64,000 nt of DNA from Cyanophora paradoxa CCMP329. Taxonomy: Eukaryota; Plantae; Glaucophyta. Shown one piece after another: positions 1 through 48,687 of this stretch. The stretch is from the NCBI GenBank assembly GCA_004431415.1, contig QPMI01000575.1, positions 1-64,000 on the forward strand, written 5' to 3'. The notes beneath the pieces are model-generated. The model made no database searches, was not told the DNA's origin, and worked only from the letters and a program-made list of their open reading frames with translations. Position 1 is the first letter of the stretch, and the number at the start of each line of letters is the position of its first letter. The translations under genes were made by a program, and so were the position numbers.

Positions 1-364
1 AGCAAGAAGATTCGCTTTTAACAGAACTCTTGTGGATGCAAGCAATAATATCACATTATCCACAGGCACCTTTACAGCACCTGTGTCCGGAATTTATAGA
101 TTCTTCTTCATTGTTCAAATGTCAACAGCTTCATCAACAGGGGAGTGTAGAGTTGCATTAGAAAGAATGATTTGGCTCTTTCCCCTCAATCGGTTCAAGA
201 ATTTCAACTTACAATGGAAGGCGAAGTGTTCATATGGAGGCTTCTTTTGCTGTATATGCGAACGAATTTGTGAATGTATACAAACCTGGACATCGTCCAT
301 GCAATATGATGCTACAATACAAGGTATTACCTGTTTTGGGGGGCATCTCATCAGTAGATTATAA
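1..364 (+). pseudogene. 3' part of C1q/TNF-like (fibre head-type) domain gene
   Basis: TGTFTAPVSGIYRFFF and C-terminal TCFGGHLI match C1q-domain motifs; frameshifted in the middle. Confidence 0.6.
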
Positions 365-386
365 ACTTTTTGTTGGGAATTTATAG

Positions 387-1407
387 ATGGCTACCCAAAT
401 TGCAGTTCCTGTTTTCTGTTATGCAGCACCTAAATTGCATCAAACTGAACCACACAGTTACAGATGCTATTCCCGGGTTTATTTGCACAGAAACCACAGG
501 AGCAGATTCATTTACTCAAAATTCAATTATCAGATGCAAGGAAATTCGATGTGATAGAAATGCTGGAAAAATACGAACCACACAATTAATCGTAAGTAAC
601 AAGAATCAGGTTTTACCAGGTGGTGTAGTTGCTGATGCAGCTATTTATTGATGCAGGTGGGGTGACCACACCACAAATTGTTACTTTTGATGGGACAGAA
701 AAATAAACAGCACTTGTAGTTAAATCAGGTGGAGCATGGATAGGTTCGGGAGCTTTTGTGAATGGAACACTCTCAGCTACAAATGTTTCAATTTCAGGAA
801 CAACAACATTTACAGGTGTTGTGAATGCAAATGGTGGTCTTTTTGTTCCTACTTATACAGTCCCTGTGATGACCGCAACCACAAAGATACAAACACCTGA
901 AATAGATACAGGAGCAATGTAGATCTGATTCTGAAACGAAATAGCACAGAAGTCGCACGAATTGATGCAGGGGGTCTTACAATCGCAGCAAACTTTTATT
1001 TGAAGCAAGAAACCCAACCTCGATTTTGTGTTGGGTTTGGTGTAGCAACAAGAAGTGGAGTATATGGGCGTCTTACTAATTGGTTGCATGAATTCTTTGA
1101 TAATACCAACTCATTTGATGTAGTAGAAGGGAAATTCACAGCGCCTATAAGTGGAGATTATAGATTCTCTCTTAATTCTTATAGTATTGTTACCTCATCT
1201 GTGAGTGTAGATCTGAAAGTAAATGATCAGAATGTTTCAACAGAATTCAATTTCAGGGTAAACAACTCACAAACAGTAACCAACAAAACAATCATTTTGA
1301 GCGCAATACTCAGACTTGGAGCCGGGGATAATGTCTCTATTTATGCTGTTGATACTTCCATTTCAGAATTCACAACGTTTAGTGGCGAATTGCTGAGCAT
1401 AATTTAA
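387..1407 (+). pseudogene. Fibre-like protein with shared N-terminal module and C-terminal C1q-like domain
   Basis: IRCKEIRCDRNAGKIRTTQLIV module; C-terminal GKFTAPISGDYRFS...LRLGAGDNVSI...TTFSGELL; internal stops and frameshifts. Confidence 0.6.
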
Positions 1408-1426
1408 TTTCTACAAGTAGTTTAGA

Positions 1427-1690
1427 ATGTCGAATATATACCAAGTAGTTCTGACTGATACCGAAAAGTTGGGAATGGAATATTGCGCTGCTTCTGTTCA
1501 GGACTGGATTGATAATGCTGCCCACAACAGGGCAAGAATCGCAATTGATGAGATTGTTCAGAAAGAGATCCAATCTTGCATCTCATCAGGAGTTCAGATA
1601 CCAACCTCAAAGGAAGCGATTGTATTACAGGCATTCCAAAGGGGAACTGTAAAGAAAGGTATCGAGTATAATAATGTCACAGAAGAGTAG
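1427..1690 (+). CDS. 87-aa protein resembling small phage virion-associated proteins found next to C1q-type fibre genes
   Basis: Intact ORF with LTDTE..MEYCAASVQDWIDNAAHNRARIAIDEIV; resemblance recalled from marine phage proteins, not searched. Confidence 0.5.
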   Translation: MSNIYQVVLTDTEKLGMEYCAASVQDWIDNAAHNRARIAIDEIVQKEIQSCISSGVQIPTSKEAIVLQAFQRGTVKKGIEYNNVTEE

Positions 1691-1730
1691 TGTACATTAT
1701 TTTTCTTTCCTTCTTAGTAAAGAAGAAGCA

Positions 1731-2574
1731 ATGGGTGAATATAATCGAGTTCAACTTCCAATATATCCCTTGGATCCCCTGCAATGCACTTTCGCCAGCA
1801 TGAAGTTAATGATGAGTTCGTGGTTTAGAATCCACAGAGAGACCCAATTCCAATGGTAACTCCTTTGATAAAAATTCGATTATTCGAGTTAAAGAGCTGA
1901 GAGCTGATAAGAATTCAGGTGTGGTTAAAACAACTCGACTTCTTGTCACAAATGCTAACTTTTTCCAGCCTACAAATGGAGGTCCTGATGCTTACAGTGT
2001 TGATCTGAAAGCCCTGGATTTCGATAAGAATTCTGCAGCTGTTACTGTGAGATCAGGAGGAGCATTTATTGGGGGTGGCTGCAGAGTTTCAGGTCAACTC
2101 TCATCCTCAATTTCGTATAATGATGTCCCAGATACTCTTGAGCAGAATGTTGAAGACCCCCAACGAATTCGATTATATATACCAGTTGCACAACAGCCAC
2201 TTATTCAATTTTACCAAGGTTATACTGTCACACTTGAAAACTCTGAATTGATTGAAGGAACCAAAAGAGTAATGAGAGGGCTGGTCATTCCTTCTGCAAT
2301 GCTTTCTTTATGTAGAGCCAACAATAACCAGCCAGGTCACAGATACAATTTCAGTGTTCAGGGATATGATCATTTTGGCACAGGGTTCTGTGTTTATAAT
2401 AACAATTTCACCTATGATCTGTTTGTTACAGATATTGGAAAATATACAATTACAGTTATGGGTATCAGAACAGATATAGCTGCTGTCTCAGCTCTTAGAG
2501 GTGTTACTCCTGATACTCTTTCTCAAACAGGGTTTTACATGGAGCCAGATGTGATTGATGAACCCACCCCATAA
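1731..2574 (+). pseudogene. Fibre-like paralogue 2
   Basis: IRVKELRADKNSGVVKTTRLLVTNANF module shared with neighbours; frameshifted 5' part. Confidence 0.5.
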
Positions 2575-2597
2575 AAGATATATCCCTTTAATGTAAA

Positions 2598-3420
2598 ATG
2601 GCTGAGCAACCCCCACTTGAACGAATTATTACACCACAGCTATCATTAGCTGCCCCAGCAAACCATGTTCTGCAGCATGCTACCTTTGATGATGTGGAAG
2701 GTCTCCAATCCACAGAGGTCCAACCTACAATGAACACCTTTGGTTCCACCCACAAACTGAGATTACAGGAACTCAGATGTGATAAAAATAATGGAATAGT
2801 TAAGACAACTAAGCTACTTGTCACAAATGCAAACTTTTCTGCTCATTATGGAGACCCAGATAGCTATGGAGATCCTCTGTCTACTTATTCTTTTGAATCT
2901 AGGTCGGAGCTATTAACTGCAAATCGGGGGAGCTTATATTGGTGATGGTCTTAGGGTTGGTGGGCTGTTGGAGCGCCTTTATTTGTGAATGATCAACCCA
3001 ATCCCATTGATCCCAATACAAAATTCGAACCTATGTCCCAGCAGAATGCCCATACATTATAAAGATATTCCCCATTGTTGTAATGAACAAACAGCAGTAG
3101 TAGACTCCCTTGTTGAAATTGGTGACCACTACAAGGTAGTTGTGGATATCCCACCAGATGTATATGCTGTATGTCAAGTAGAGGGTGGAACTCCTAATTT
3201 TGCAGTTGTGATCACCCATATATAATTTGGTATTGCTTATCATGGAGTCAATTTCGGTTTGGAAGACTATCAGTTTCTGGTGAGAGCCACCAAGTTTGGT
3301 ATCTACAAGTGTGTATTATATGCTGAGAGAACCGATTTTATTGCAAGGCAGAATACCTATGCTGAGTATTATGGCACAAATCGATATTTCCCCATTTTTG
3401 GACAGGATACTGCTCCATAA
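2598..3420 (+). pseudogene. Fibre-like paralogue 3
   Basis: LRLQELRCDKNNGIVKTTKLLVTNANF module; C-terminus (FGIYKCVLYAERTD) parallels IGKYTITVMGIRTD of paralogue 2; frameshifts. Confidence 0.5.
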
Positions 3421-3442
3421 GAATATTGGTTATATATAGAGT

Positions 3443-3686
3443 ATGGATAGTAAAACAAAAAGTTTATTGATGCTGCTATGACAGTTCATGGTAAAGATAA
3501 ATTCGATTACAGTGAGACACATTACATCAAAGCTCAAGAGAAAGTATCTGTGAGATGTTTGCAGTGTAATAAGGTGATCCTTACCTATCCTTTATCATGT
3601 GAAGGGATCAGGTTGCAGGGACTGTAACAAAAGAAAGAGTCAAGCACACAGGAAAAGAGCTACTTCATCAATCAGAGTAGAGTATA
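3443..3686 (+). pseudogene. Remnant of Zn-ribbon repeat (DUF723-like) protein
   Basis: FIDAAMTVHGKDKFDYSETHYIKAQEKVSVRCLQCNK matches the repeat unit of the 36363-37508 protein. Confidence 0.55.
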
Positions 3687-3735
3687 GGGATATTTGCATT
3701 AGGTTTGACTAGTTAATTTTTCTAAGGTATTCTTA

Positions 3736-4127
3736 ATGGAGACTAAATACAGAGGCTTTCATGTTATGCTTGATTACAAGGCTAAATCAGCTATAGCAAA
3801 GGTTATGAGCATGTTAGCTTCCTAGGTAATTGATTATGGGAACCCTTGAACAAGCAGTATTGAGACAAGGTATTAGGATTGTTCATAAGCATTGTGAGAT
3901 ATTTGATGGCAAAACTATCACTCCTGGTTTTGCATTGGTTCTGCTATTAGATGAAAGCCATTGCACAGCTCATTGTTATTCCAATGAAGGCATGTTAGCA
4001 ATTGATATATTCAGTTGTGGTAAGAAGCTCAGCATAAAACAAGCAGTTGCAGATGAGATCGATAAAACAATGATTTCTAACATTTGAGAAGACTGAGAGA
4101 CATAAACATGATAGATTCCCGTTTTGA
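3736..4127 (+). pseudogene. speD: Prokaryotic/viral-type S-adenosylmethionine decarboxylase proenzyme remnant
   Basis: GFHVMLDY at the N-terminus; GFALVLLLDESHCTAHCYSNEGMLAIDIFSCG contains the ESH self-cleavage motif and DIFxCG; interrupted by stop/frameshift. Confidence 0.7.
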
Positions 4128-4519
4128 TGGGTTTCTATAATGATAAACAGGGTAATTTACCTTTTTTTTACAATGGCAATCGTTAAAAAAGGATATAATA
4201 TATCCTTTCCTACAATAGCTTTCTACAATGATTTTCTTCTACAGTAGCTTTTGTTACAATAGAATTCTACTGTATGATGTAGCCGAAATATGAATGCACC
4301 CTACATTAAGCAATGTCAAGTATTTCGAATACTATTCGATTTCCTTACAATAACACTCAGCATCTCCCCTTGATTCCCCTATTATATATATTTATATTTA
4401 AGTGGACGATATCGATATCGATATAACATCGATAAATTAATTGAAATGCATATAAAAATATGAAAATTCAGGTGAAATTCAAATAAATTAATCGATTTTA
4501 TTGATATAAATCGAATCAC

Positions 4520-4587
4520 ACATATGAATATTCATATTTTAATCCTGAGGCGGAACGCCGAGGATTAAAATATGAATATTCATATGT
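4520..4587. repeat. Terminal hairpin: 27-bp perfect inverted repeat with 14-nt loop
   Basis: ACATATGAATATTCATATTTTAATCCT (4520-4546) / AGGATTAAAATATGAATATTCATATGT (4561-4587); the loop contains GGCG-GAA-CGCC. Confidence 0.9.
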
Positions 4588-5202
4588 TCGCAATCCCAAG
4601 TTCTTCGAGAGCCTTGAAACAAAATCGTTCGAATTACACAGCTCTCTCGTCAAGCACTGCTCCACGTGCACCAGCACTGAAGACGAGAAGCATATGTTGG
4701 TGTCGCATGCAGGTAAAACAATTGCACGTTAATCAACACATGAATTAATTGAATTATACGCAGGGTTTCTATTTGCTGTTCCCTCCTATGCAGCACGTAC
4801 ACTACCCGGAATCTCGATAAATATAGCCAGTGAACAGCGCGAAGCTTACAGACGTTATATCTTTCCAATAGACTATTACCATCCAGACTTAAGCATTTCC
4901 TTGCCTCCCCACAGATCTAGATCTATAGCCAGGATAGCTATAGCTAGCAGCAGATCAGGTACATATGCACACAGATATGTACGTGCATATGTAAGGGATC
5001 CGGAGGGAAGGCTCCAGAAAGAGCTTAGTGACCGCACTTGGAAGGCTGCTGCCCGTAAACGCTAGCCTGTTGTTTTGCTGATCACGATCAAAGTGAAGCT
5101 GCAACTCTGAAGGCAATCGCAATTGGCGGCTGGGTGGTCGGCTCTAAAAAACTTGCGATCCGGATCGGAGCTTCGAATTTGCGTGTTCATGGTCAGATAA
5201 AG

Positions 5203-8200
5203 AGAGCTATCCGGTCCGCAGAAGCATTCTGAAGTAGACAACGCCGCAGACCTGCAGAGCCCGCCGTGCTATTCGTGGCCGGAAATTAAAGTCGATGCTG
5301 GAGATTGAGCTCCTCGTATTATGGGCGCTGATCAATAGCGCCAGTTTCGAAAATCGGCCTGCAGCTAGCATCGTTCGAAAAGAGCTATCCGCAGAAGAAT
5401 CAAGATGGAGACTGGGCCGCGGACCTGCAGAGCCCGCGGCTGCTTTGCAATTTGTGGTCGGAAGGTTGATATCGATGTTGGAGATTGAGCTCCTCGTATC
5501 ATTAGTGCTCTTATCAATAGCGCCAGTTTCGAAATCGGCCTGCAGCTAGCATCGTTCAAAAAGAGCTATCCGCAGAAGCATTAAGATGGAGACTGGGCCG
5601 CGGACCTGCAGAGCCCGCCGTGCTATTTGTGGCCGGAAAGTCGATGTTGGAGATTGATCTCCTCGTATTATGGGCGCTGATCAATAGCGCCAGTTTCGAA
5701 AATCGGCCTGCAGCTAGCAGCTAGCATCGCTCGAAAAGAGCTATCCGCAGAAGCATTAAGATGGAGACTGGGCCGCGGACCTGCAGAGCCCGCCGTGCTT
5801 TTTGTGGCCGGAAAGTCGATGCTGGAGATTGAGCTCCTCGTATCATGGGCACACTTATCAATAGCGGCAGTTTCGAAAATCGGCCTGCAGCTAGCATCGC
5901 TCGAAAAGAGCTATCCGCAGAAGCATTAAGATGGAGACTGGGCCGCGGAACTGCAGAGCCCGCTGTGCTATTTGTGGCCGGAAAGTCGATGCTGGAGATT
6001 GAGCTCCTCGTATCATTAGTGCGCTTATCAATAGCGCCAGTATCGAAAATCGGCCTGCAGCTAGCATCGCTCGAAAAGAGCTATCCGCAGAAGCATTAAG
6101 ATGGAGACTGGGCCGCGGACCTGCAGAGCCCGCCGTGCTATTTGTGCCGGAAAGTCGATGTTGGAGATTGAGCTCCTCGTATCATTAGTGCGCTTATCAA
6201 TAGCGCCAGTTTCGAAAATCGGCCTGCAGCTAGCATCGTTCGAAAGAGCTATCCGCAGAAGCATTAAGATGGAGACTGGGCCGCGGACCTGCAGAGCCCG
6301 CCGTGCTATTTGTGGCCGGAAAATCGATGTTGGAGATTGAGCTCCTCGTATCATTAGTGCGCTTATCAATAGCGCCAGTTTCGAAAATCGGCCTGCAGCT
6401 AGCATCGTTCGAAAAGAGCTATCCGCAGAAGCATTAAGATGGAGACTGGGCCGCGGACCTGCAGAGCCCGCCGTGCTTTTTGTGGCCGGAAAGTCGATGC
6501 TGGAGATTGAGCTCCTCGTATCATGGGCACACTTATCAATAGCGGCAGTTTCGAAAATCGGCCTGCAGCTAGCATCGTTCGAAAAGAGCTATCCGCAGAA
6601 GCATTAAGATGGAGACTGGGCCGCGGACCTGCAGAGCCCGCTGCCGCTTTGCAATTCGTGGTCGGAACGTGGATATCGATGTTGGAGATTGAGCTCCTCA
6701 TATCATTAGTGCGCTTATCAATAGCGCCAGTTTCGAAATCGGCCTGCAGCTAGCATCGTTCGAAAAGAGCTATCCGCAGAAGCATTAAGATGGAGACTGG
6801 GCCGCGGACCTGCAGAGCCAGCCGTGCTATTTGTGGCCTGAAAGTCGATGCTGGAGATTGAGCTCCTCGTATCATGGGCACACTTATCAATAGCGGCAGT
6901 TTCGAAAATCGGCCTGCAGCTAGCATCGTTCGAAAAGAGCTATCCGCAGAAGCATTAAGATGGAGACTGGGCCGCGGACCTGCAGAGCCCGCCGTGCGTT
7001 TTGTGGCCGGAAAGTCGATGTTGGAGATTGAGCTCCTCATATCATTAGTGCGCTTATCAATAGCGCCAGTTTCGAAAATCGGCCTGCAGCTAGCATCGTT
7101 CGAAAAGAGCTATCCGCAGAAGCATTAAGATGGAGACTGGGCCGCGGACCTGCAGAGCCCGCCGTGCTTTTTGTGGCCGGAAAGTCGATGCTGGAGATTG
7201 AGCTCCTCGTATCATTAGTGCGCTTATCAATAGCGCCAGTTTCGAAAATCGGCCTGCAGCTAGCATCGCTCGAAAAGAGCTATCCGCAGAAGCATTAAGA
7301 TGGAGACTGGGCCGCGGACCTGCAGAGCCCGCCGTGCTTTTTGTGGCCGGAAAGTCGATGCTGGAGATTGAGCTCCTCGTATCATGGGCACACTTATCAA
7401 TAGCGGCAGTTTCGAAAATCGGCCTGCAGCTAGCATCGTTCGAAAAGCGCTATCCGCAGAAGCATTAAGATGGAGACTGGGCCGCGGACCTGCAGAGCCA
7501 GCCGTGCTATTTGTGGCCTGAAAGTCGATGCTGGAGATTGAGCTCCTCGTATTATGGGCGCTGATCAATAGCGGCAGTTTCGAAACTCGGCCTGCAGGTA
7601 GCATCGCTCGAAAAGAGCTATCCGCAGAAGCATTAAGATGGAGACTGGCCGCGGACCTGCAGAGCCCGCCGTGCTATTTGTGGCCGGAAAGTCGATGTTG
7701 GAGATTGAGCCCTCGTATCATTAGTGCGCTTATCAATAGCGCCAGTTTCGAAAATCGGCCTGCAGCTAGCATCGTTCGAAAAGAGCTATCCGCAGAAGCA
7801 TTAAGATGGAGACTGGGCCGCGGACCTGCAGAGCCCGCCGTGCTATTTGTGGCCGGAAAGTCGATGCTGGAGATTGAGCTCCTCGTATCATGCATATGGG
7901 CACACTTATCAATAGCGGCAGTTTCGAAAATCGGCCTGCAGCTAGCATCGTTCGAAAAGAGCTATCCGCAGAAGGATTAAGATGGAGACTGGGCCGCGGA
8001 CCTGCAGAGCCCGCCGTGCTATTTGTGACCGGAAAGTCGATGCTGGAGATTGAGCTCCTCGGATCATTAGTGCGCTTATCAATAGCGCCAGTTTCGAAAA
8101 TCGGCCTGCAGCTAGCATCGTTCGAAAAGAGCTATCCGCAGAAGCATTAAGATGGAGACTGGGCCGCGGACCTGCAGAGCCCGCCGTGCTTTTTGTGGCC

Positions 8201-11200
8201 GGAAAGTCGATGCTGGAGATTGAGCTCCTCGTATCATGGGCACACTTATCAATAGCGGCAGTTACGAAAATCGGCCTGCAGCTAGCATCGTTCGAAAAGA
8301 GCTATCCGCAGAAGCATTAAGATGGAGACTGGGCCGCGGAACTGCAGAGCCGCTGCCGCTTTGCAATTCGTGGTCGGAACGTGGATATCGATGTTGGAGA
8401 TTGAGCTCCTCGTATCATTAGTGCGCTTATCAATAGCGCCAGTTTCGAAAATCGGCCTGCAGCTAGCATCGCTCGAAAAGAGCTATCCGCAGAAGCATTA
8501 AGATGGAGACTGGGCCGCGGACCTGCAGAGCCCGCCGTGCTTTTTGTGGCCGGAAAGTCGATGCTGGAGATTGAGCTCCTCGGATCATGGGTACACTTAT
8601 CAATAGCGCCAGTTTCGAAAATCGGCCTGCAGCTAGCATCGTTCGAAAAGAGCTATCCGCAGAAGCATTAAGATGGAGACTGGGCCGCGGACCTGCAGAG
8701 CCCGCCGTGCTATTTGTGACTGGAAAATCGATGTTGGAGATTGATCTCCTCGTATTATGGGCGCTTATCAATAGCGGCAGTTTCGAAAATCGGCCTGCAG
8801 CTAGCATCGTTCGAAAAGAGCTATCCGCAGAAGCATTAAGATGGAGACTGGGCCGCGGACCTGCAGAGCCCGCCGTGCTATTTGTGACCGGAAAGTCGAT
8901 GCTGGAGATTGAGCTCCTCGGATCATTAGTGCGCTTATCAATAGCGCCAGTTTCGAAAATCGGCCTGCAGCTAGCATCGTTCGAAAGAGCTATCCGCAGA
9001 AGCATTAAAATGGAGACTGGGCGCGGACCTGCAGAGCCCGCCGTGCGTTTTGTGGCCGGAAAGTCGATGTTGTAGATTGAGCTCTTCGTATCATTAGTGC
9101 TCTTATCAATAGCGCCAGTTTCGAAAATCGGCCTGCAGCTAGCATCGTTCGAAAAGAGCTATCCGCAGAAGCATTAAGATGGAGACTGGGCCGCGGACCT
9201 GCAGAGCCCGCCGTGCTTTTTGTGGCCGGAAAGTCGATGCTGGAGATTGAGCTCCTCGTATCATGGGCACACTTATCAATAGCGGCAGTTTCGAAAATCG
9301 GCCTGCAGCTAGCATCGTTCGAAAAGAGCTATCCGCAGAAGCATTAAGATGGAGACTGGGCCGCGGAACTGCAGAGCCCGCTGCCGCTTTGCAATTCGTG
9401 GTCGGAACGTGGATATCGATGTTGGAGATTGAGCTCCTCGTATCATTAAATATTAGTGCGCTTACCAATAGCGCCAGTTTCGAAAATCGGCCTGCAGCTA
9501 GCATCGTTCGAAAAGAGCTATCCGCAGAAGCATTAAGATGGAGACTGGGCCGCGGACCTGCAGAGCCCGCCGTGCTATTTGTGACCGGAAAGTCGATGCT
9601 GGAGATTGAGCTCCTCGGATCATTAGTGCGCTTATCAATAGCGCCAGTTTCGAAAATCGGCCTGCAGCTAGCATCGTTCGAAAAGAGCTATCCGCAGAAG
9701 CATTAAGATGGAGACTGGGCCGCGGACCTGCAGAGCCCGCCGTGCTTTTTGTGGCCGGAAAGTCGATGCTGGAGATTGAGCTCCTCGTATCATGGGCACA
9801 CTTATCAATAGCGGCAGTTTCGAAAATCGGCCTGCAGCTAGCATCGTTCGAAAAGAGCTATCCGCAGAAGCATTAAGATGGAGACTGGGCCGCGGAACTG
9901 CAGATCCCGCTGCCGCTTTGCAATTCGTGGTCGGAACGTGGATATCGATGTTGGAGATTGAGCTCCTCGTATCATTAGTGCGCTTATCAATAGCGCCAGT
10001 TTCGAAAATCGGCCTGCAGCTAGCATCGTTCGAAAAGAGCTATCCGCAGAAGCATTAAGATGGAGACTGGGCCGCGGACCTGCAGAGCCCGCCGTGCTAT
10101 TTGTGGCCGGAACGTTGATATCGATGTTGGAGATTGAGCTCCTCGTATCATTAGTGCTCTTATCAATAGCGCCAGTTTCGAAAATCGGCCTGCAGCTAGC
10201 ATCGCTCGAAAAGAGCTATCCGCAGAAGCATTAAGATGGAGACTGGGCCGCGGACCTGCAGAGCCCGCCGTGCTATTTGTGACCGGAAAGTCGATGCTGG
10301 AGATTGAGCTCCTCGGATCATTAGTGCGCTTATCAATAGCGCCAGTTTCGAAAATCGGCCTGCAGCTAGCATCGTTCGAAAAGAGCTATCCGCAGAAGCA
10401 TTAAGATGGAGACTGGGCCGCGGACCTGCAGAGCCCGCCGTGCTATTTGTGGCCGGAAAGTCGATGCTGGAGATTGAGCTCCTCGTATCATGGGCACACT
10501 TATCAATAGCGGCAGTTTCGAAAATCGGCCTGCAGCTAGCATCGTTCGAAAAGAGCTATCCGCAGAAGCATTAAGATGGAGACTGGGCCGCGGAACTGCA
10601 GATCCCGCTGCCGCTTTGCAATTCGTGGTCGGAACGTGGATATCGATGTTGGAGATTGAGCTCCTCGTATCATTCAATGATTAGTGCGCTTATCAATAGC
10701 GCCAGTTTCGAAAATCGGCCTGCAGCTAGCATCGTTCGAAAAGAGCTATCCGCAGAAGCATTAAGATGGAGACTGGGCCGCGGACCTGCAGAGCCCGCCG
10801 TGCTATTTGTGGCCGGAACGTTGATATCGATGTTGGAGATTGAGCTCCTCGTATCATTAGTGCGCTTATCAATAGCGCCAGTTTCGAAAATCGGCCTGCA
10901 GCTAGCATCGCTCGAAAAGAGCTATCCGCAGAAGCATTAAGATGGAGACTGGGCCGCGGACCTGCAGAGCCCGCCGTGCTATTTGTGACCGGAAAGTCGA
11001 TGCTGGAGATTGAGCTCCTCGGATCATTAGTGCGCTTATCAATAGCGCCAGTCTCGAAAATCGGCCTGCAGCTAGCATCGTTCGAAAAGAGCTATCCGCA
11101 GAAGCATTAAGATGGAGACTGGGCCGCGGACCTGCAGAGCCCGCCGTGCTTTTTGTGGCCGGAAAGTCGATGCTGGAGATTGAGCTCCTCGTATCATGGG

Positions 11201-11375
11201 CACACTTATCAATAGCGGCAGTTTCGAAAATCGGCCTGCAGCTAGCATCGCTCGAAAAGAGCTATCCGCAGAAGCATTAAGATGGAGACTGGGCCGCGGA
11301 CCTGCAGATCTTGAGCCCGCCGTGCTTTTTGTGGCCGGAAAGTCGATGCTGGAGATTGAGCTCCTTGTATTATGG
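5203..11375. repeat. Tandem satellite, 170-bp monomer (~35 copies) with longer variant monomers
   Basis: CGAAAAGAGC-type anchor recurs at 6761, 6931, 7101, 7271 and 7441 (period 170); edges are degenerate. Confidence 0.95.
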
Positions 11376-13720
11376 AGTTCATGTTCAATTCACGATGTGC
11401 ACGTGTGCATGCTATTGAAGCATTACACACGTGCACACGCTAGAGCTCCAGACTTTGCTTCCGCAAGTTTACTCCGGTGACTTTGCTCCAGGGGGAGAAG
11501 CCAGGGAGGGGTACCGGTCTCGTCATGCACGATTGTGCGCAGCTCCTTTCGGGTGTCGCCCTGTGGTCGGAGAACTAGCTAGAGCGCGCGATCCAGCTAG
11601 CTAGAGACTTTAGCACCGCCAGCTACCTTGGCGGCGCTCGGTCTGAGCATTCGGTACGCAACCATATGCATTGGCAGACATCGGTCTCAAGAGCACCGAT
11701 GTGGCAGCCGTACTTCGGTTGTAACGTAGCTGAAATCAATGCTTACCGCATTCGAAGCGCCGTGCGCTGCGTCCCAGCTCATAATGGTCGGGCCTGGGTG
11801 AAGTTGGCCGAGGTCGGGCCGCCCAACAACCTCCCCTTAAAAGCTGCAAATCGTCTCTAAACGACCTTTTAGAACACTTGAACCAGTCAAGGCAGCCCGC
11901 GTGCGTCGCTCTCTTGACGAGTTGTGCTCGCATCCACGCCGGACCACAGAAGCTACCGGGCCATCGGCGCTCAATGGATCCCGTGCACTTATGCCTAGCT
12001 AAGCACATTTAGCACGGCAGCAGTGCTTCCCCGCGCGGCTTTCCTAGGTGGGGTAAAGACAGGTGTGGTAAAGTCAGCCCTAACTGAGTGAAGTTGCAAG
12101 TTTACCATGTGGTAAACTTAATTCCTGGCTCCCAGTGTATTGTGAACTGCGGCTGAATTCGAAAATGAAGTTGTCGAATATTCTAATCATATTTTGCAAG
12201 CGGATCCGTCTTTTAGCAATTATATTTTGTGCGAACTGTCCTCTAGGAACTAGAAACGAAATGAAACACCTATGTCCAGACTTCGGTCAATCTAGATCAC
12301 GATCAATAGACTTTGGCCCCGCTGTGCTGCACGTCATCGAGGCGCTTGGCCGGGGCGCCACCGAAGACGACGGCACCCGGCGCCTTGTTGACTTGGAACG
12401 TCTGCTCCGATCGGAGTCAGGCCTAGGCCTCGCGACCGATCAACAACTGCAAATCCAAAAATGCGTGCCTTGTCAACCGAGCGGGCGCCCATGATCTGAT
12501 CGATGACGTTTCCGATCTCAGGGGCCTTTTCGGCGCTGATCCAGTGGTTGCTCTCGGCGCCAGCCCGCTGGAAGCCGATTTTGAATGCGCTGGACTCGTA
12601 GTGACCGCCGCCGCAGCAGATGCAACACGTGTCCTTCTCAGCGTGATCCACCTGCACACCGACGAATTCGATGTCATAACTGATCATGATTGTAATGCAT
12701 ACGCATGCGCACCGAGCGGTAAACAGAAAACCCGGTGAGGTCCTTCACGAAGTGCGTGATGCTCTCTGCGCCACGGAATTAAAGGATTGCATTCGAATTC
12801 GTTAACCGAACACGCGCACCATACTCCTCAGTCCACTGCTTCGCATGATCCGGGTTGATCGGCTCCATGGACTCGGTTGCATTCTTGTTCCCGAGACCAA
12901 ACATCGCAAGTGGTGCCCTGCCGCGGTAACGGTGGCTCTCGTACCTGCCGAAAGTTGAAGGTCTCAACTTTCGCGTGCCACTGTGCAAGACTATAGCGCT
13001 TACTTGATTCGAAGGTCCGTGACGATGAGGCGCGCTTCATCGGGTCTCGGCGCCGGCGGCTTGCACAGCCCGCAGCAGTCCAAACACGTTTCAGCTGGAC
13101 GGTAGGGGATTTGCATCTGCAAATCGAGACATGTAAAGGGTTTGGGTCGAACAACCGAAATTCCAAAGATATACGTAAACGTGCCTCCCACTTCCCATAG
13201 AGCTCCTCATCTTTTATAAGATCCATGTCCCTGAAAACGGCGCCATCATCAAATGGCGCACGCCATCAACAACGTTCGACGCACTTCCATGCGAGTTGAC
13301 GCGTGTTAACCTTGCTCTTGCCCATCTCTTCACAAGTTCAACAATGTGAGAAGCCTCCGAATTCGAAGCTGCACTACCGGCCGCGGCCGGGCGGGAATTT
13401 TCGAAGCTGTTGCTGTATACGTACGCGATATACGGTAGCCTACTAGGATAGTACGGTAGTTGCAACTTGCAATTGCAATTGCCGTCGCCGTGACGTCGAT
13501 TCGGCGAGCCTACCCGGTACTCGGCGAGCCTAGCTATATATATAGGCGGCCGGGCCTGACGCAGTGACTCACAGACTCACGTGTGCACACTGCACAGTGA
13601 TCACTGATCATGAGGGGTCGCACGACGTACTTTACTCATTCAAGAGTCCGACCGTCGGACCAACATTACATGGGTAACATGGCTAGTTGCACCGCGTTTC
13701 CCTGTGGAGTCGGTCGGGGC

Positions 13721-14122
13721 TAGGGTTGCCGTGTCCATGCCACTCCATGGACATGTCAGTCAACCCGGTGGACATGGACATTCGGACACGGACATGCCCG
13801 CCGACATGTCCGCGGACATTGAATATTTAATTAAATTAAATTATATAATATTAAATGCCAAAAGCTTAAGTGAGGCGGCGGGGCAGCTTTGGCGAGGTTC
13901 CCGCTGCCCTCCGCCTCTTTCCAAGCATCAGAGACGTGTTGCTAACTTTAGCAGTGTTCTGCTAACGTGTTTAGAGCACGTTTAGCACGCGTTTCAGCCG
14001 GTTTCGAGGGGTATCCCCCCTAATGTCCACGGACATGTCCACCCGGACCCACGGACATTGACATGACATGTCCGCGGACATGGACATGTCAATGTCCGCG
14101 GACATCGGACACGGCAACCCTA
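13721..14122. mobile_element. hAT-type MITE
   Basis: 16-bp TIR TAGGGTTGCCGTGTCC / GGACACGGCAACCCTA; 8-bp TSD GTCGGGGC on both sides; subterminal GGACATG/CATGTCC repeats. Confidence 0.9.
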
Positions 14123-14304
14123 GTCGGGGCCCCAGCTGCAGCAGACGGTACTACGGACTCTCTAGTACGGAGTCTACGGTACTACGGTATATGGTACGTG
14201 TATATGGTACTTTGATGCGCAGCGCCGCATGCGCAGACTCCGGCTCCGGCACTGACCGGCAGTGCCGGGGCCGCGGCCGCCAACTCGCGATCGGCGCCAA
14301 CTAA

Positions 14305-14785
14305 CGCCGCCAAGTTAACTTAGTACTAAGTTAGTACTACTTAGTAGTAGTAACTAGTAAGTTGCGGCGCCGGCGCCAACTTCGAGTCACTGAGAGTCAA
14401 GTCCCGGTCCGGATCCCTCACTGAGTCAATTCACATGCAATGCAAACCGCGTGACGGTGAGCCGGCCCGGCGGGTCAGGTGATCGACTTCCGGCAGTGCC
14501 GCGGCGCCGGCCCGGGCCGCGGCCGCCAAGTTGCCGAAGTTGCGCCAACTTGCAACTTGGCAACTCGGCGCCAAGTTAACTTAGTACTACGGTACTAAGT
14601 TAGTAGTAGTAAGTTACTAGTAACTTAGTAAGTTGCGGCGCCGGCGCCAACTTCCGAAGTTCGAGTCAAGTCCCGGTCCGGACTCCGGACTCCGGACTCC
14701 GGGATCCCTCACTGAGTCAATTGCAATGCAAACCGCGTGACGGTGAGCCGGCCCGCCGGGCCGGCGGGTCAGGTGATCGACTTCC
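14305..14785. repeat. Diverged direct duplication (~190-220 bp units) rich in micro-palindromes
   Basis: GCCAAGTTAACTTAGTACTA...GGCGGGTCAGGTGATCGACTTCC occurs at ~14308-14491 and ~14570-14785. Confidence 0.75.
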
Positions 14786-14885
14786 GTAACGTAACGGTAA
14801 GTTTCGTGCTGTACCAGCCTGTATATACGTACCGTAACGTACGTATACGTATACTCAGTATATGTATATACCGTCATGATCACTA

Positions 14886-15069
14886 CCGTAAAACACAATA
14901 ATATGACGGTCAAATTTATGTCGTTTTAAAACCCGACCCTTCTCTATGCGAAACATGATGTCCCCGTCGTTATATATGCATATGTCGTTATCTCCCGTCC
15001 GAGGCGAAATAATTTGGGGATGACATAATAAAGCTTTTTAAGTGCGTACCTTCATATTCTGTTTTACGG
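14886..15069. mobile_element. Tc1/mariner-type MITE
   Basis: TIR CCGTAAAACA(C/G)AATA, flanked by TA on both sides; interior related (inverted) to 51648-52025. Confidence 0.65.
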
Positions 15070-16485
15070 TATATTACCGTAGTACCGTGTACGGTGTTAT
15101 CATAGTATATTACTTCCAGACTAAAATAATACCAGTTACCAAGTTACGGTTACCGTATACCGTATACGTAGTTCACGTGCCGAGTCGTGCGAATACACGC
15201 AGAAAGCACATGATATTACAGAATAGCCTAGTAGAGGTAGGCAAGCCTGTATTTGATGAATTTGTTTGGCCCGCGACCGTCGGACATGCGCTAGCCTAGT
15301 AGAAATGAGAAGCTAGTTTACGTCAAGCTTAATTATAAGAGGCCGCCTCTCCCCCCCTCGGCTCGAGCCCTGGCTGGCCGGCTCGACCTAGCTCGCCCCT
15401 GGCTCGAGCCAGCCGCTGAGCCCTCCCCTCCGAGGCTCTCCGAATATTTCCGATGTGACACGTGCACTGTACATGTGACAGCCTACCGCAGCCGAGGTCC
15501 GCAAGTAAGTTAATGAGGCTGTGGCCGGATTCACCAACAAAAAAACGTTTAATGCGACGTCGACATGAAGAAATTAATTACATAATGCGGTTATATATAT
15601 TAATTAGCTCGACCCGGACGGTGGCCGGACCCCGGCCGCGAAATGGCCCTAATTGTGACATTGCAATTGATGCGGCACAAAATTATATAAAAAATGCGTT
15701 TTGAAGCTTTTCGCATAGCGTATACCGTATACCGTATACGTACGTAGGTAGTAGACTACTAGTACTAGTAGTTCGGAAGCTGCAGCTGGGCCCTCGGGGG
15801 GTACAAACAGTAGTTTATGAGCGTTTTGAAAGCAATATTTTAATTAAGTATTATACTATGATACAAAATTAAGCTACTGGGCTATCGATCGCGACGATAT
15901 CTAGATCTGGGCTTGCGAAGACGTGAGTCACGTCACGATATCTCAGAGTCTGGGCTTGCGAAGTCACGTACGCGTGGCGTCGTCAATTGCAAGCGCCGCG
16001 CCGCGGCACGGCGCGGCGCCGCGGCGGGCCGGCGGCCCGGCGGCGTTCTAGCATGGAATGTGGAGACTTGCAATCGAGCTCGATTCCACGAACAGTCACC
16101 AAGGCGATGAACTCAAAATTTTGACGCGGTTGCAAAAAATTGCCTATGTAACCGCGCGTCACTGCGGCGTCAGGACTCAGGAGTCAGGACCCCATGGCCA
16201 GGGGCCCAATTGCAACGACCGAAGCGACCAAGTGCCAAAAAAATGATCATCGGATGTCATGGGCCTCATCATCGGCCCTCATGGCCCCTTCGGTCGTTAA
16301 CAAGTGTCAATTTCAATTTCAATTTGTCCATTCATGCATCGCGTTAATTCGCTACCGATTCATGCATCGCATTTATATATTTTACCGGTCTCGCGACCGA
16401 TACTGGAAGTCGGGTAATATTTAAGACGCCTTCGAATCCCGCCCGGCCCGTTTCAGAATCTCATTCGATCATGCCCTACGTATAC

Positions 16486-16960
16486 TGTGCCGTCACGTCT
16501 CGCACGTCTAGGGGAGAGACGTAGACCCACACCGCGTACAACAGTGTACGGACCTGCGATGCACTCGACTGTAGGCCAGCCCGAGTCCCAGGCAGCCCGT
16601 AGCTATGAGATTGCAAGCCGCAGTGCTAGTATTAATTACAGCTGCTACGTAAGCCCAAGTTACTTAGTTAACGCTGTACCAAGCTCGATTAATTGGTAAT
16701 CACAAGTCTGCCCGAGTCCACTAGACTCTGACTATTTACGGGGCTAAGCCACCGCGTGCCACGTCGGCTCAGGCCCTGGCCACGTCGGCTCGGGCCCTTC
16801 AGCGCCACGTCGGCTCGGGCCCTTGAGCGCCGCCGTGCACGTGTCGGGCCGGGGGCCCCTCCGGGACCGGGTACGCCGCGCCCGGCGGCCGGCACCCCCT
16901 CGAGGCCCGCGGCGGGTACGCCCCCACGTTGATCGCGAACTCGCGATCGCGCCCGCGACA
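16486..16960 (-). repeat. 3' LTR
   Basis: TGTGCCGTCA...CCCGCGACA, apparently identical to 50865-51339. Confidence 0.93.
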
Positions 16961-17430
16961 TTCGCCGCAGCACAAGAAAGCCGTCCTCGGCGTCCATCCC
17001 GCGACGTTCGCCGCAGCAAATCGAAAGTCCCCGAATATTTACATATCCACAATTCAGAAGGGTGAGCTGCCGAACAACGACATCGACCGGCTCCGTCCCT
17101 TCGCAACTCGCAGTTGACGTCGGCCCCGCAGCCGCCGCTGCCCCTCGACGTCTTGCGAGTCTGGCCCCTCCGGCCTGCGGCTGGATCTGTAGACGGCGAG
17201 AAAAGAGGGAGTCCTGTGCTGCAGAACGCGGACGCCGCCGCGACGAGCACTTCCAAAATTTCCGCTCTTGTTCTCAAATCCGCCTGACGAGATTCTCCGC
17301 CCATTTTCGACCCCAGAATAAAATTAGCGGCCGGACGCACAGCTAAATTGACGGTTGCTGTGGGTCCGCCGGCGGTAGGTGCACTTGCACATCGAGTCCG
17401 AAGACCGAGAATGTCCGCCGAGGTTGCTCA

Positions 17431-17713
17431 ACACATAGTAAAATGCGGAGTTTTAACCCTCGGCTTATCTTAATTGATTTTGTTGATATATCTCGTATAT
17501 TCTATTTCAATCAATCGATAATCTGTGTATATCTTATCGAATAGTCATTTATTTCGATTATTTTGTATTCTTTTCGATATTTTATCGTAAATTTCTCTTA
17601 TTTTCCGATTAGTCTTACTGAGTCTATCGATAATCTGTATATATTTCCGAATATTATAACTGAATCTCAATTAGATCTTGCCTCTGGTTAAAACTCCGCA
17701 TTTTACTATGTGT
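17431..17713. repeat. Terminal fold-back: 28-bp perfect IR (17431-17458 / 17686-17713) around an AT-rich, partly self-complementary interior; mirrored at 47620-47902
   Basis: ACACATAGTAAAATGCGGAGTTTTAACC and its reverse complement GGTTAAAACTCCGCATTTTACTATGTGT. Confidence 0.92.
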
Positions 17714-18425
17714 GATTGGTCTGTTTGTTAATTGATTTAATCGATATTATATTCATGTACTTTCTCGATTAAATTTAATTAAATTTAATTCATTTAATCG
17801 GAAATATATCGCTAAACTCGATTAAGATCCATAAATGATTCATTTGTTAAATAAAACAAATCGATCTCTTATTGAATCCAATCGTAATTATACATGAAAC
17901 TTATATGTTTTTATCATGTTTTAATGATTCTAAGGGGGGACCCTTAGGATTTTTGAAATAATTGGGTGTGACACATACCATATTCAGTAAGGACCTCTTA
18001 TATTGTGAAAATCTCAGTGTTAGTTGTGTAGTTGATTCAAAAAATGCATTTTATACTCTGATTCATTGTTATTTCCTGTGAAATTTGAGTCAACTCAACC
18101 CACTTAGTCAACCCTTGTATTGAATTCGTAACAAAATCCATATACTATTACTACTTTTACGATTAATATGAGTCAACCTTGAGTCCACTTTAATAATAGG
18201 GGGAATCTTGGGGAGATGTCATTGTAGAAAGCTATTGTAGTAAAATGATATATTATGTCCTTTTGTTACAATAGCTGATCAATGTTATTGTTAGAAAACA
18301 AAGGAATCCTTTCACTGGGATTTTGTTTTTTACGGTTATAAAATTGTATCTGTGGTGCATTTTGTCGAATTGCTTGTATTAAACTGTTTTGCTCTTCTAT
18401 GTATTCGATCGTACTTTTATGTGAA

Positions 18426-18733
18426 GGTTACATTAATGTTTAAAAAGTTACATGGAGTTACGTGATGGGTTACGTAGATATTTTACGATTACTAAGACCA
18501 TTCTCAGTGTTAAAATGGTTGATTTATCGCTATTTTGTCACTGTGAGTTACGGTTACGCAACTTTTTGAATTCTTTCTGAAAATTTGGCTGGGGGTCTTT
18601 TTATAGGTGAAGGTCTAAAACTTGCGTAACCACGTAACTTGCGTAACCTCTACGACATTATGGTGTCATTTCTCTATACTTTTAGGTTACGTAACGTTTT
18701 TACTTACGTAACTTGTGTAACCTTAACGTAACC
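18426..18733. repeat. GTTAC/GTAAC intergenic cassette R1 (copies 26985-27291, 46603-46909)
   Basis: Conserved core GTTACGGTTACGCAACTTTTT...CTTGCGTAACCNCGTAACTTGCGTAACC...GGTTACGTAACG...GTGTAACCTTAACGTAACC. Confidence 0.9.
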
Positions 18734-18810
18734 TTGTTATTCTTACATTTAATCACTGTTATACTATGATATCATGATAACTAAAAATGATACATGATAA
18801 TTGCTTATCT

Positions 18811-19272
18811 TTAACCACGTAGAGATGTTAGATGATCACAATCGAACATCTTAAAGATCTTGCATATCTCATTTTCAGGATCGGTGACATACCATAGACG
18901 GTGTCGCTTATCAAATAAAGCGCCTTGGTTTTTAATGTATTTACGTAATGATGCCTGGGTAAATATACGTTTAGCTTCTATTTCAGGTAGTTTAGTTTTT
19001 ATGTCACCAACGAAATATAGACGTTTCGGGCGATTATGATAATCAGGATCGATAACGATGGGGTTTATTGTAGGAAAGTGCTTTAAGATTCTGTGAAACT
19101 TGTAGCAAACAAACCAATACCCTGTGTCATCATCGAATTTAACGCCACAATCTTTGATATCTAATAGTGATCTGAAACAAGTATTACGGAGGTTGCTTAT
19201 ATCCAACATGTAAGCGCCGTAGTAATGGTGCGGCTCGTTTGTGGTGTTTCCGAAATAAATGAATTGATCCAT
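18811..19272 (-). CDS. 153-aa protein with two DUF5710-like motifs, copy 1
   Basis: IKDCGVKFDDDTGYWFV and IKNQGALFDKRHRLWYV resemble the K..GA.(W/F)D...K.WY motif; AAAATTGA 26 bp upstream. Confidence 0.65.
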   Translation of the reverse strand: MDQFIYFGNTTNEPHHYYGAYMLDISNLRNTCFRSLLDIKDCGVKFDDDTGYWFVCYKFHRILKHFPTINPIVIDPDYHNRPKRLYFVGDIKTKLPEIEAKRIFTQASLRKYIKNQGALFDKRHRLWYVTDPENEICKIFKMFDCDHLTSLRG

Positions 19273-19353
19273 TTGTAATCAGATGTTAAAAAGATTGTCA
19301 ATTTTTCATAAATCCTTCTCTGTAAAGTTTTGGTTAAACAATTGGAAAACTGC

Positions 19354-19672: not shown

Positions 19673-19809
19673 TTATTATAACATCTTAAAAATGTCATCT
19701 GTTATCAAACGGTAGCGGGTGCGATACATAAGATCATGTCACGAGAAGCGATAGGATCCGCTTGTGAAGCGATGAAAAAATGAAGCAAATCTTAAAACTT
19801 AAACAATAA

Positions 19810-20563: not shown

Positions 20564-20593
20564 ATTTCATCGATAGCGCAAGCGCTATTTTTA

Positions 20594-46525: not shown

Positions 46526-48687
46526 AGATAAGCAATTATCATGTATCATTTTTAGTTATCATGATATCATAGTATAACAGTGATTAAATGTAAGAATAAC
46601 AAGGTTACGTTAAGGTTACACAAGTTACGTAAGTAAAAACGTTACGTAACCTAAAAGTATAGAGAAATGACACCATAATGTCGTAGAGGTTACGCAAGTT
46701 ACGTGGTTACGCAAGTTTTAGACCTTCACCTATAAAAAGACCCCAGCCAAATTTTCAGAAAGAATTCAAAAAGTTGCGTAACCGTAACTCACAGTGACAA
46801 AATAGCGATAAATCAACCATTTTAACACTGAGAATGGTCTTAGTAATCGTAAAATATCTACGTAACCCATCACGTAACTCCATGTAACTTTTTAAACATT
46901 AATGTAACCTTCACATAAAAGTACGATCGAATACATAGAAGAGCAAAACAGTTTAATACAAGCAATTCGACAAAATGCACCACAGATACAATTTTATAAC
47001 CGTAAAAAACAAAATCCCAGTGAAAGGATTCCTTTGTTTTCTAACAATAACATTGATCAGCTATTGTAACAAAAGGACATAATATATCATTTTACTACAA
47101 TAGCTTTCTACAATGACATCTCCCCAAGATTCCCCTATTATTAAAGTGGACTCAAGGTTGACTCATATTAATCGTAAAAGTAGTAATAGTATATGGATTT
47201 TGTTACGAATTCAATACAAGGGTTGACTAAGTGGGTTGAGTTGACTCAAATTTCACAGGAAATAACAATGAATCAGAGTATAAAATGCATTTTTTGAATC
47301 AACTACACAACTAACACTGAGATTTTCACAATATAAGAGGTCCTTACTGAATATGGTATGTGTCACACCCAATTATTTCAAAAATCCTAAGGGTCCCCCT
47401 TAGAATCATTAAAACATGATAAAAACATATAAGTTTCATGTATAATTACGATTGGATTCAATAAGAGATCGATTTGTTTTATTTAACAAATGAATCATTT
47501 ATGGATCTTAATCGAGTTTAGCGATATATTTCCGATTAAATGAATTAAATTTAATTAAATTTAATCGAGAAAGTACATGAATATAATATCGATTAAATCA
47601 ATTAACAAACAGACCAATCACACATAGTAAAATGCGGAGTTTTAACCAGAGGCAAGATCTAATTGAGATTCAGTTATAATATTCGGAAATATATACAGAT
47701 TATCGATAGACTCAGTAAGACTAATCGGAAAATAAGAGAAATTTACGATAAAATATCGAAAAGAATACAAAATAATCGAAATAAATGAATATTCGATAAG
47801 ATATACACAGATTATCGATTGATTGAAATAGAATATACGAGATATATCAACAAAATCAATTAAGATAAGCCGAGGGTTAAAACTCCGCATTTTACTATGT
47901 GTTGCTCACACCGCCACAGGGTCAGGAGCACAAACGAAAGACGGCACTAGCCTCGAACGACATCAGATGGTTTGGAGCGTCCCCCGCCCCACCCGACGCG
48001 TGAAGCTGTGCTCGACCTCCCGTTGTCCCCTCCAAAACTCCAGCATCCGACGATGATGCGTACAGATGCCTCTTCCAGACGATGGTGCGCCTGGAAGGAC
48101 CCGACGCTAAGCCTCACTGGCCTCAGTCCGCGACGATGATGCGCCGCGGACGCCCTGCTCCGAGCGATGGTGCGCTCGAGCTCGCTCCGACGTCGAGTAC
48201 CAAGGGACGCCGCACTTGGATTTCGAATTTTGCCACCTGCGGTGACGAGACGTTGAGCCCGCGTCCGTCTGATGCAGGTCCGACCCGGTCACGTTCGGAT
48301 GGACGACGACCTCGGGCCCTCCCGGCCCTCAACCGCCGTACGTCCCCCGTCCCACCCAGCTGTCACAGGCGCCCTCCTCGACCCGTCCTGATCAGGGCCC
48401 GGGCAGGTCCGCGCCTCGGCTGTGGACGCCGGTCCACCGGACATAATCGGCACGACGCCTCCTTTCTTCCCGAAGGCAGGCCGTCGTCGGCACCGGTGCT
48501 TCTCCTTTCTGTCCCGAAAGCAAGCAAGCACCACTTCAACGTTGCAGATTGCAAATTGCAAAACCAACGAATATTCACAGCTGACTCCGCGCGCCCTTGC
48601 TTGCGAAGCTGCAGCTGACACCCCACGCCATCTCGCGCTGGCCTTTTCGAACTGGCGGAGACCTAACCGCCAAGAAAATGTTCGAAG

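Follow-up and report, generated by a model that had tools for sequence, protein, structure and literature searches.

Known palindromic termini and the Cyanophora locus

Terminal palindromes in endogenous virophages and in polinton-like viruses (PLVs) have only lately come to notice, and what role they play is not settled. In the available part of the Halocafeteria seosinensis preprint (Haro et al. 2026; bioRxiv 10.64898/2026.07.28.741278) they lie within the terminal inverted repeats (TIRs) and adjoin the target-site duplications (TSDs) of endogenous virophages and of a PLV subtype. They are described there from all complete elements of four virophage subtypes and also from one PLV subtype, and are associated with replicases other than the protein-primed family B polymerase (pPolB), such as D5 primase-helicase, as well as with particular rve integrases. 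Hairpin-primed replication is proposed in the same account, as a model that its authors call untested (bioRxiv 10.64898/2026.07.28.741278). The present analysis deals with two AT-rich elements, both ending in a terminal hairpin, in a stretch of 64,000 nucleotides from Cyanophora paradoxa CCMP329 (assembly GCA_004431415.1, contig QPMI01000575.1, positions 1 to 64,000 of the forward strand), which is referred to as the window.

A second group of related systems is formed by the PLVs of cryptophytes and other protists, which the available portion of PMC12220804 describes as elements of 14–40 kb with TIRs of hundreds of bp and TSDs of 5–6 bp attributed to an rve integrase. These PLVs have AEP-S3H primase-helicase replicases and diverse fibre proteins, and they have undergone large expansions within genomes (PMC12220804). 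Neither ‘hairpin’ nor ‘palindrom’ occurs in the main text of that paper. Against this background the two Cyanophora elements are read here, with slightly more confidence than doubt, as belonging to a single high-copy family of virus-like mobile elements that are bounded by TIRs and have a modular terminus, in which the hairpin is probably a structure-selected signal that would serve replication and mark the insertion end.

Common architecture of the two termini

The host DNA of the window has a GC content of 0.53–0.84, is eukaryote-like in appearance and is interrupted by two AT-rich blocks. The first of these is the left element, on the forward strand at 1–4587, with a GC content of 0.36–0.41 against 0.53 in its flank; it runs off the start of the window, beyond which lie its other end and most of its body, so that only its right terminus can be read. 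The second, of about 30 kb, is the big palindromic element at 17431–47902. An earlier note on this DNA had proposed that the end at 4150..4587 matches the region 47072–47150 and that the two elements are related through a common terminal architecture. That proposal has stood up well, since the strings it quoted are all found where it placed them, the similarity is collinear and far above that of AT-rich shuffles, and hairpins sit at the exact ends of both elements. The order of the parts is the same in both termini: an iteron block is followed by a CATCTCCCC..GATTCCCCTATTA block, then by a TCGA-rich stretch and by the 11-mer AATCACACATA, and last comes the terminal hairpin.

Block 1, which runs AAAGGATATAATATATC..CTACAATAGCTTTCTACAATGA and carries TACAAT-type iterons, lies on the forward strand at 4176..4231 in the left element and at 47060..47116 in the big one. 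When the two ends are aligned pairwise, as the earlier note had suggested, the block is 86% identical over 57 nt (blastn E 1.3e-11), and its Smith-Waterman score of 72 was reached by none of 500 dinucleotide-preserving shuffles, which gave 26.3 +/- 3.1 with a maximum of 44. The 22-mer CTACAATAGCTTTCTACAATGA occurs four times in the window (4210 and 47095, and on the reverse strand at 18219 and 26778) where 0.00 are expected, and every occurrence is subterminal. Block 1 also holds TATAATATAT and TCTACAATG, and was considered as a promoter; this was dropped, as conservation between the two elements does not extend to the open reading frame (ORF) behind it.

Block 2 (CATCTCCCCTTGATTCCCCTATTA .. 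AAGTGGAC) opens the terminal module and occupies 4361..4407 on the forward strand of the left element. Its first part, 4361–4385, is 92% identical over 25 nt to 47117–47141 (E 0.002), with a score that one shuffle in 500 reached, and AAGTGGAC is found at 4400–4407 and 47144–47151. Blocks 1 and 2 abut in the big element, whereas in the left element they are 129 nt apart, the alignment placing between them an iteron-rich insert on the forward strand (4232..4360) that the big element lacks. TACAAT or its complement ATTGTA occurs five times in 4150–4385.

The TCGA-rich subterminal stretch follows at 4408..4519 (forward strand) in the left element and closes with a conserved AATCAC. TCGA is found five times in the 202 nt of the left terminus (4386–4587) against 0.42 expected, and nine times in 763 nt of the big terminus against 1.9 expected; in neither case did any of 2000 shuffles reach the count. 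The 11-mer AATCACACATA is present four times in the window (4514 and 47616, and on the reverse strand at 17707 and 26267) against 0.05 expected, and each of the four copies occupies the inner base of a hairpin or of what is left of one. In the big element, block 2, the TCGA-rich stretch, AATCACACATA and the hairpin together make up a terminal module at 47117..47902 on the forward strand, which is high-copy in the public sequencing runs considered below.

The terminal hairpins

The left hairpin (4520..4587, forward strand) has a perfect stem of 27 bp, with arms at 4520–4546 and 4561–4587 and 14 nt between them. Its predicted folding energy is -30 kcal/mol (z -10.9), and none of 200 shuffles folded as well. 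The hairpin of the big element (47620–47902, forward strand) has a perfect stem of 28 bp, with arms at 47620–47647 and 47875–47902 that are separated by 227 nt, and a folding energy of -51.2 kcal/mol (z -10.0) that was equalled by none of 100 shuffles. The stem's last paired base coincides in both cases with the final base of the element, 4587 and 47902 respectively. Near its tip the left hairpin has a 4-bp mini-stem with a GAA loop, and the big hairpin a 3x3 mismatch and a GGC/GCC clamp. The spacings of 14 and about 227 nt given by the earlier note are exact.

Between ACACATA and TTTTAA the 5' arms of the two hairpins differ at about eight positions and by two indels, and each of these differences is mirrored on the 3' arm. 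The inner junction of AATCAC with ACATA, the TTTTAA..CC part of the stem and the tip, GAGGC...GCCGAGG with a small asymmetry or mismatch, remain unchanged. The stem had been described earlier as changed yet perfectly paired, and the differences are indeed fully compensated. The further reading that structure rather than sequence is maintained is likewise well founded, given the compensated stems and the tolerance of both a 14-nt and a 227-nt gap between the arms. This 16-fold difference in arm spacing favours intrastrand fold-back over a binding site for a dimeric protein on duplex DNA. Moreover, hairpin transfer alone does not keep pairing perfect, because each arm is then copied from its own complement; the full compensation hence favours selection on pairing, or repair in folded DNA. 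Judged from the sequences, the compensated stems suggest a structural signal rather than a mere repeat.

Element ends and target-site duplication

The hexamer TGCTCA flanks the big element on both sides (17425..17430 and 47903..47908) and constitutes a 6-bp TSD, or one of 7 bp if the neighbouring T is counted. A short duplication of the 5–6 bp class was thus found for the big element, the one element with both ends in the window. Its TIR is hundreds of bp long, as in elements of the PLV and virophage type, and the inverted identity runs from the termini inwards, for example at 98% between 17429–17953 and 47380–47904. The big element shows the combination by which the terminal-palindrome subtypes of virophages and PLVs are marked: a non-pPolB replicase, and a palindrome that lies within the TIR and adjoins the TSD. 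GCCGAGG, the heptamer found in the hairpin tip, also occurs at 17417–17423, directly to the left of the TSD. This was treated as a chance occurrence and not as a meaningful echo of the tip, there being 15 such heptamers in the window against 7.7 expected.

The boundary of the left element is real, because contigs from the family's other copies end at 4587 and those from further copies of the flanking repeat begin at 4589. The DNA at 4589–4884, directly to the right, is itself a repeat, with a depth in the public runs of 755–1,872 against 38–85 for unique DNA, and leftward of 4589 the contigs of its other copies take a different course. The left element thus sits inside another repeat.

Abundance and exchange of terminal modules

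Fourteen public runs of DNA type from the same organism contain about half of the words of 1–4700, and six runs whose ‘RNA?’ label is guessed contain 0.08–0.13 of the words. Contigs of three DNA-type runs from different years (X1, X3 and X5) and of one run with the guessed ‘RNA?’ label (X15) were compared with the window. The contigs of X15, in which DNA may be present, cover 2065–4587 and 47139–47902.

Unique DNA at 5041–5220 has a depth of 85, 51 and 38 in X1, X3 and X5. The left element is matched at 90–100% identity by 899, 1723 and 952 contigs in the same runs, and its summed depth rises from about 550–2,500 over 1–1440 to 9,000–40,000 over 1441–2160 and 12,500–36,000 over 2521–3600, with about 2,600–14,000 over 3601–4680. 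The body of the big element (39000–47099) has a depth of roughly 580–1,600, 120–800 and 220–1,270 in X1, X3 and X5, apart from one bin near 160, 74 and 81, and its terminus (47100–47904) reaches 20,700–29,500, 6,000–19,300 and 8,000–26,400. By these rough depth ratios the terminal module of the big type, the final 790 nt, is about 20 times as abundant as the body of the big element. The two termini, like the conserved portions of the fibre genes, are part of an abundant repeat family.

Contigs from other copies depart from the window sequence exactly between 47116 and 47117, the boundary of blocks 1 and 2, and also at 47139. The former break is the very site at which the left element carries its 129-nt insert. 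In all three DNA runs, moreover, a contig enters at 47023 from the left-type sequence CGTTTTGATGGGTTTCTATAATGA, a 24-mer that is unique in the window and lies at 4120–4143, just behind the S-adenosylmethionine (AdoMet) decarboxylase ORF of the left element. A left-type body is therefore joined to big-type subterminal sequence elsewhere in the genome, and the termini are modular and have been exchanged. The TGCTCA duplication, the high copy number of the termini, the breaks at the block boundary and the joins of left-type with big-type sequence are new here.

The same contigs bear on the quality of the assembly. Against the contigs of all three DNA runs the window shows four indels and one substitution in 461 nt of unique DNA (4855–5317). 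Frameshifts in the left genes coincide with an extra base in many contigs, for instance behind 2905, 2925, 2961 and 4021, and at the frameshift sites of the primase gene in the big element an extra base is found behind 40084 and 41926 in all covering contigs, with the exception of X5 at 41926, where it accounts for about a third of the depth. The assembly probably holds single-base indel errors, and frameshifts in the window are not to be read as decay without polishing. The description of the left element as old in the earlier note is to be qualified accordingly, for the apparent decay may partly be indel error of the assembly.

Gene content and relatives

The left element carries four paralogous fibre-like genes on the forward strand within 2..3420 (about 2–364, 445–1407, 1816–2574 and 2598–3420), as delineated by Pfam C1q matches, self-tblastx and a frame map. 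The paralogs have a common N-terminal module, ..NSF..IRVKELRADKN.G..KTT.L.V.N .. GGA.IG.G, that is followed by variable heads, and in two of the four the head is a C1q domain (2–364, Pfam E 2.1e-5; 1000–1407, Pfam E 5.9e-9). With two such domains and a common module, the term fibre-like that was applied earlier to these genes is a reasonable one. All four are interrupted in the window copy, and tblastn alignment with the database proteins P0004–P0007 requires changes of frame. Behind them lie a fragment of DUF4379-type zinc-finger repeats (3430..3600, from tblastx and translation) and a short AdoMet decarboxylase-like ORF of 85 aa (3830..4087; Pfam AdoMet_dc E 1.5e-10, phrog_3125 E 1.4e-10), both on the forward strand. 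The stretch 3496–3591 has three tblastx matches to 36735–37451 (E 0.001–0.004) and resembles the repeats of an endonuclease of 413 aa in the big element, so that DUF4379-type endonuclease sequence is, by translated comparison, common to both elements.

As outlined by repeats, Pfam and PHROGs, the big element consists of a unit, a tandem unit from 26185, a centre and a further unit in inverted orientation. Among its products is a D5-type primase-helicase (PriCT_2 E 6.7e-14, D5_N E 5e-10, DUF5906 E 9.4e-8), and with it the element has a replicase of its own, which belongs to the primase/polymerase-helicase fusions rather than to the pPolB type, no pPolB being found among the window ORFs scanned. 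The homing-endonuclease-like protein of 413 aa (phrog_559, E 4.8e-90), which among the ORFs of the element only the primase exceeds in length, lies in the unique centre, and two RING-finger proteins and small ORFs without assignment complete the set.

The element is an almost perfect palindrome whose sole unique part, about 1.2 kb of the centre (36356–37555), coincides with the ORF of 413 aa (36363–37604). One arm has an extra tandem unit, and the junction between 26184 and 26185 falls inside the loop of a terminal hairpin. In this arrangement the big element looks like a frozen product of head-to-head replication or of fold-back. Several of its genes are preceded by intergenic cassettes of about 100–185 nt with GCGTAAC / GTTACG repeats (families D8, D9, D12 and D13), which are found at 18497–18741, 19437–19680 and 21011–21255 with copies in the other units, and may be promoter or terminator modules. 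A 21-nt tandem repeat within an ORF of 125 aa encodes heptad repeats of the GEYQHG type (family D7; 22050–22222, 30606–30778 and 43123–43300).

Database relatives are scarce. An exact look-up of window ORFs in a protein collection found none of ten, the primase had no match in a phage collection, and a word-indexed search with fibre gene 2 returned no matches. The primase has three distant relatives at about 25% identity, and an exhaustive HMMER search of 1.84 billion representatives with the fibre family gave four matches, all on contigs of 1.3–3.3 kb. The lineage is accordingly new, because its proteins are nearly without relatives, with three matches for the primase and four for the fibre family in billions of sequences. 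P0004 is an intact counterpart, of 274 aa, of the fourth fibre-like gene, and P0006 and P0007, of about 300 aa, are intact proteins with the N-terminal module and a C1q head. In a language-model comparison P0006 falls nearest to hypothetical proteins of viruses, phage tail-fibre and tropism proteins following at lower rank, which serves as a lead only. An AlphaFold model of P0006 from a 7-row alignment has a mean predicted local distance difference test (pLDDT) value of 43.8, too poor for a fold search. In the literature on PLVs, virophages and fibres, no link to C1q-type proteins was found among the matches listed.

Interpretation

Under the favoured reading of a single family with a modular, hairpin-bearing terminus, the hairpin would form where excised or single-stranded DNA folds back on itself, and it would prime or resolve the replication of a linear form. 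The AATCAC-ACATA junction and the GAGGC/GCCGAGG tip may be the points of sequence-specific protein recognition, and the parallel with terminal resolution sites of parvoviruses would lead one to expect a nick at the inner junction. Parvoviruses are nicked at this inner boundary of the stem. The hairpin may also mark the end for an rve-type integrase that other family members would supply in trans. Some members, equipped with fibre genes of the left-element kind, would make particles bearing C1q-headed proteins, and the capsid-less big element, possibly along with terminus-only copies, would be mobilised by relatives that have the same ends. That the family includes particle-forming autonomous members is thus an inference, as it was in the earlier note. 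The same note had proposed the left element as a representative of a helper lineage, which is plausible; its stem differs from that of the big element, and the abundant copies with a big-type terminus, some of which have a left-type body attached, are better helper candidates. By its gene content and ends the family may be of the virophage or polinton-like kind, membership of the PLVs or virophages being not established.

Several points weigh against this reading. The TSD rests on a single element, and the summed contig word depths are not copy numbers. Neither major or minor capsid protein, penton, packaging ATPase nor protease was found among the window ORFs scanned with Pfam and PHROGs, and no rve integrase, tyrosine recombinase or other recombinase was seen in either element or in the host flanks that the window covers. 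Capsid and packaging genes could lie in the part of the left element beyond the window. Sequence similarity provides no link to known PLVs or virophages. In IMG/VR the 22-mer, the hairpin pattern and the primase gave no matches, and none of the 39 pattern matches obtained with the fibre-family alignment was confirmed. When JGI metagenomes were scanned for two DNA motifs, the 22-mer was absent and all six matches to the hairpin pattern (L001–L006) were rejected as chance, none having a second arm. The locus of one primase relative resembles that of a giant virus. As for the hairpin, arms that appear compensated would equally result if a protein-binding site were present as two inverted copies and these co-evolved with the protein, and a protein that reads the sequence of the stem could not serve both lineages, as the stems differ.

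The most probable rival, although it is rather unlikely, is that the elements are ordinary cut-and-paste DNA transposons. The hairpin would then be two inverted transposase-binding sites and the viral-looking genes would be cargo, with no virion or hairpin DNA involved, and, with equally little likelihood, the subterminal blocks and TCGA motifs would be further binding sites. TIRs, a short TSD, a high copy number and a terminus far commoner than the body, as in miniature inverted-repeat transposable elements (MITEs), are all typical of such transposons, and the want of capsid genes in the window agrees with this. No transposase was found in the window either, however, and the AT-rich foreign composition together with D5-type primase-helicase, homing endonuclease, RING-finger and C1q fibre-like proteins amounts to a set of viral type. 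Furthermore, exactly two perfectly complementary copies of 27–28 bp in both lineages exceed what binding sites usually keep.

It is improbable that the elements are debris of an endogenised giant virus (nucleocytoplasmic large DNA virus, NCLDV) whose termini come from a small repeat or a transpoviron-like plasmid that rode in. The closest relatives of the primase are of AEP_C962R / D5 type, and the giant-virus-like locus mentioned above (L007) has topoisomerase IA, Rpb6, FNIP repeats, a kinase and two AEP_C962R-D5 genes. Giant viruses commonly carry homing endonucleases and fibre proteins, and transpovirons, which are linear plasmid-like DNAs of about 7 kb that depend on mimivirids, have long TIRs of about 500 bp. 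On the other hand, the big element stands in GC-rich host DNA as a discrete unit of 30 kb that has TIRs and a 6-bp TSD of its own, the identity of its primase to the NCLDV relatives is just 25%, and no other NCLDV hallmark gene was found in the window. That the resemblance is an assembly artefact or a chance likeness of AT-rich DNA is largely refuted and scarcely credible, for in spite of the four gaps in 461 nt of unique DNA against the short-read contigs of each of three runs, and of the proneness of large perfect palindromes to misassembly, the shuffle tests exclude chance, and both termini are covered, with identical end points, by contigs of three DNA-type runs that date from different years.

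The reading of one family with a structure-selected hairpin can be extended, tentatively and with considerable doubt, to a family of hairpin-ended virus-like replicons confined to one lineage, in which particle-forming members with fibre genes, capsid-less primase-helicase replicons fixed in the genome in the form of rolling-hairpin palindromic dimers and hundreds of terminus-only miniatures would have the same ends and a resolution site at the AATCAC-ACATA junction. If this were true, it would be the first family of eukaryotic double-stranded DNA mobile elements in which rolling-hairpin replication can be read directly from the genome. Short of that, two diverged termini of one family, with a compensated stem and with a fixed inner junction, tip and subterminal blocks, already provide candidate recognition sites. 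The abundant terminus, the exchange at one precise boundary and the replicase-only palindromic derivative suggest a small ecosystem of autonomous and dependent elements sharing their ends, which bears on how such elements spread and on a possible defence against giant viruses.

Other features of the window

The host part of the window contains an ORF of the Rpp14/Pop5 family, and scans for tRNAs and Rfam families gave no match in the window. A satellite array at 5215–11364, with about 35 copies of a unit of about 170–176 bp that are 60–99% alike, begins about 600 bp beyond the right end of the left element. On both sides of the big element the GC-rich host DNA contains a direct repeat of 475 bp (16486–16960 and 50865–51339) whose copies are 100% identical and lie about 0.5 kb and 3 kb from the ends of the element; a host repeat or segmental duplication could explain it. 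The region 57000–62900 has an extreme GC content (0.75–0.84), with G-runs, CAG/CTG repeats and overlapping long ORFs of up to 1701 aa on both strands, and a Pfam scan of these ORFs matched no family.

Comparison with known systems

Polintons end in AG...CT, unlike the termini here, which read ACACATAG...CTATGTGT. The big element also differs from Polinton/Maverick elements in that no protein-primed polymerase and no rve integrase were found, whereas the 6-bp TSD and the long TIRs are features that it has in common with them, as they are described in the available part of PMC12220804. The similarity to MITEs and other non-autonomous transposons lies in a terminus far more abundant than the body, and in a TSD without an integrase gene, which implies mobilisation in trans. 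Unlike MITEs, the big element retains its own replicase, and terminus-only copies were not seen directly as discrete TSD-flanked units.

The likeness to the hairpin telomeres of parvoviruses and poxviruses extends to the self-complementary terminal sequence, the small conserved mismatch near the tip, the conserved sequence at the inner boundary of the stem and the palindromic, dimer-like arrangement of the big element. Unlike those viral genomes, the Cyanophora elements are integrated, TSD-flanked double-stranded DNA in which no gene for an HUH nickase or telomere resolvase was seen, and their hairpin is a predicted folding potential.

With the PLVs of cryptophytes, so far as the available portion of that account goes, the window elements have in common TIRs, a 6-bp TSD, a primase-helicase replicase, fibre proteins and expansion, but they differ from them in that no capsid module or integrase was found in the window (PMC12220804). 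The closest resemblance is to the Halocafeteria elements, as presented in the available part of the preprint. Both have a palindrome in the TIR beside the TSD and a non-pPolB replicase of the D5 primase-helicase kind, both carry RING-finger and HNH or homing-endonuclease accessory genes, and both form islands, AT-poor or AT-rich, in a protist genome and have expanded to multiple copies. The Halocafeteria elements are described, in contrast, as having major and minor capsid proteins, ATPase, protease and rve integrase, none of which was seen in the window. Their palindromes are of 52 nt, whereas of the two here one measures 68 nt and the 28-bp arms of the other are separated by 227 nt. Set beside the available part of that account, and compared by description only, the Cyanophora locus adds stems that covary from one lineage to the other, a terminal module of far greater abundance and a palindromic, capsid-less derivative.

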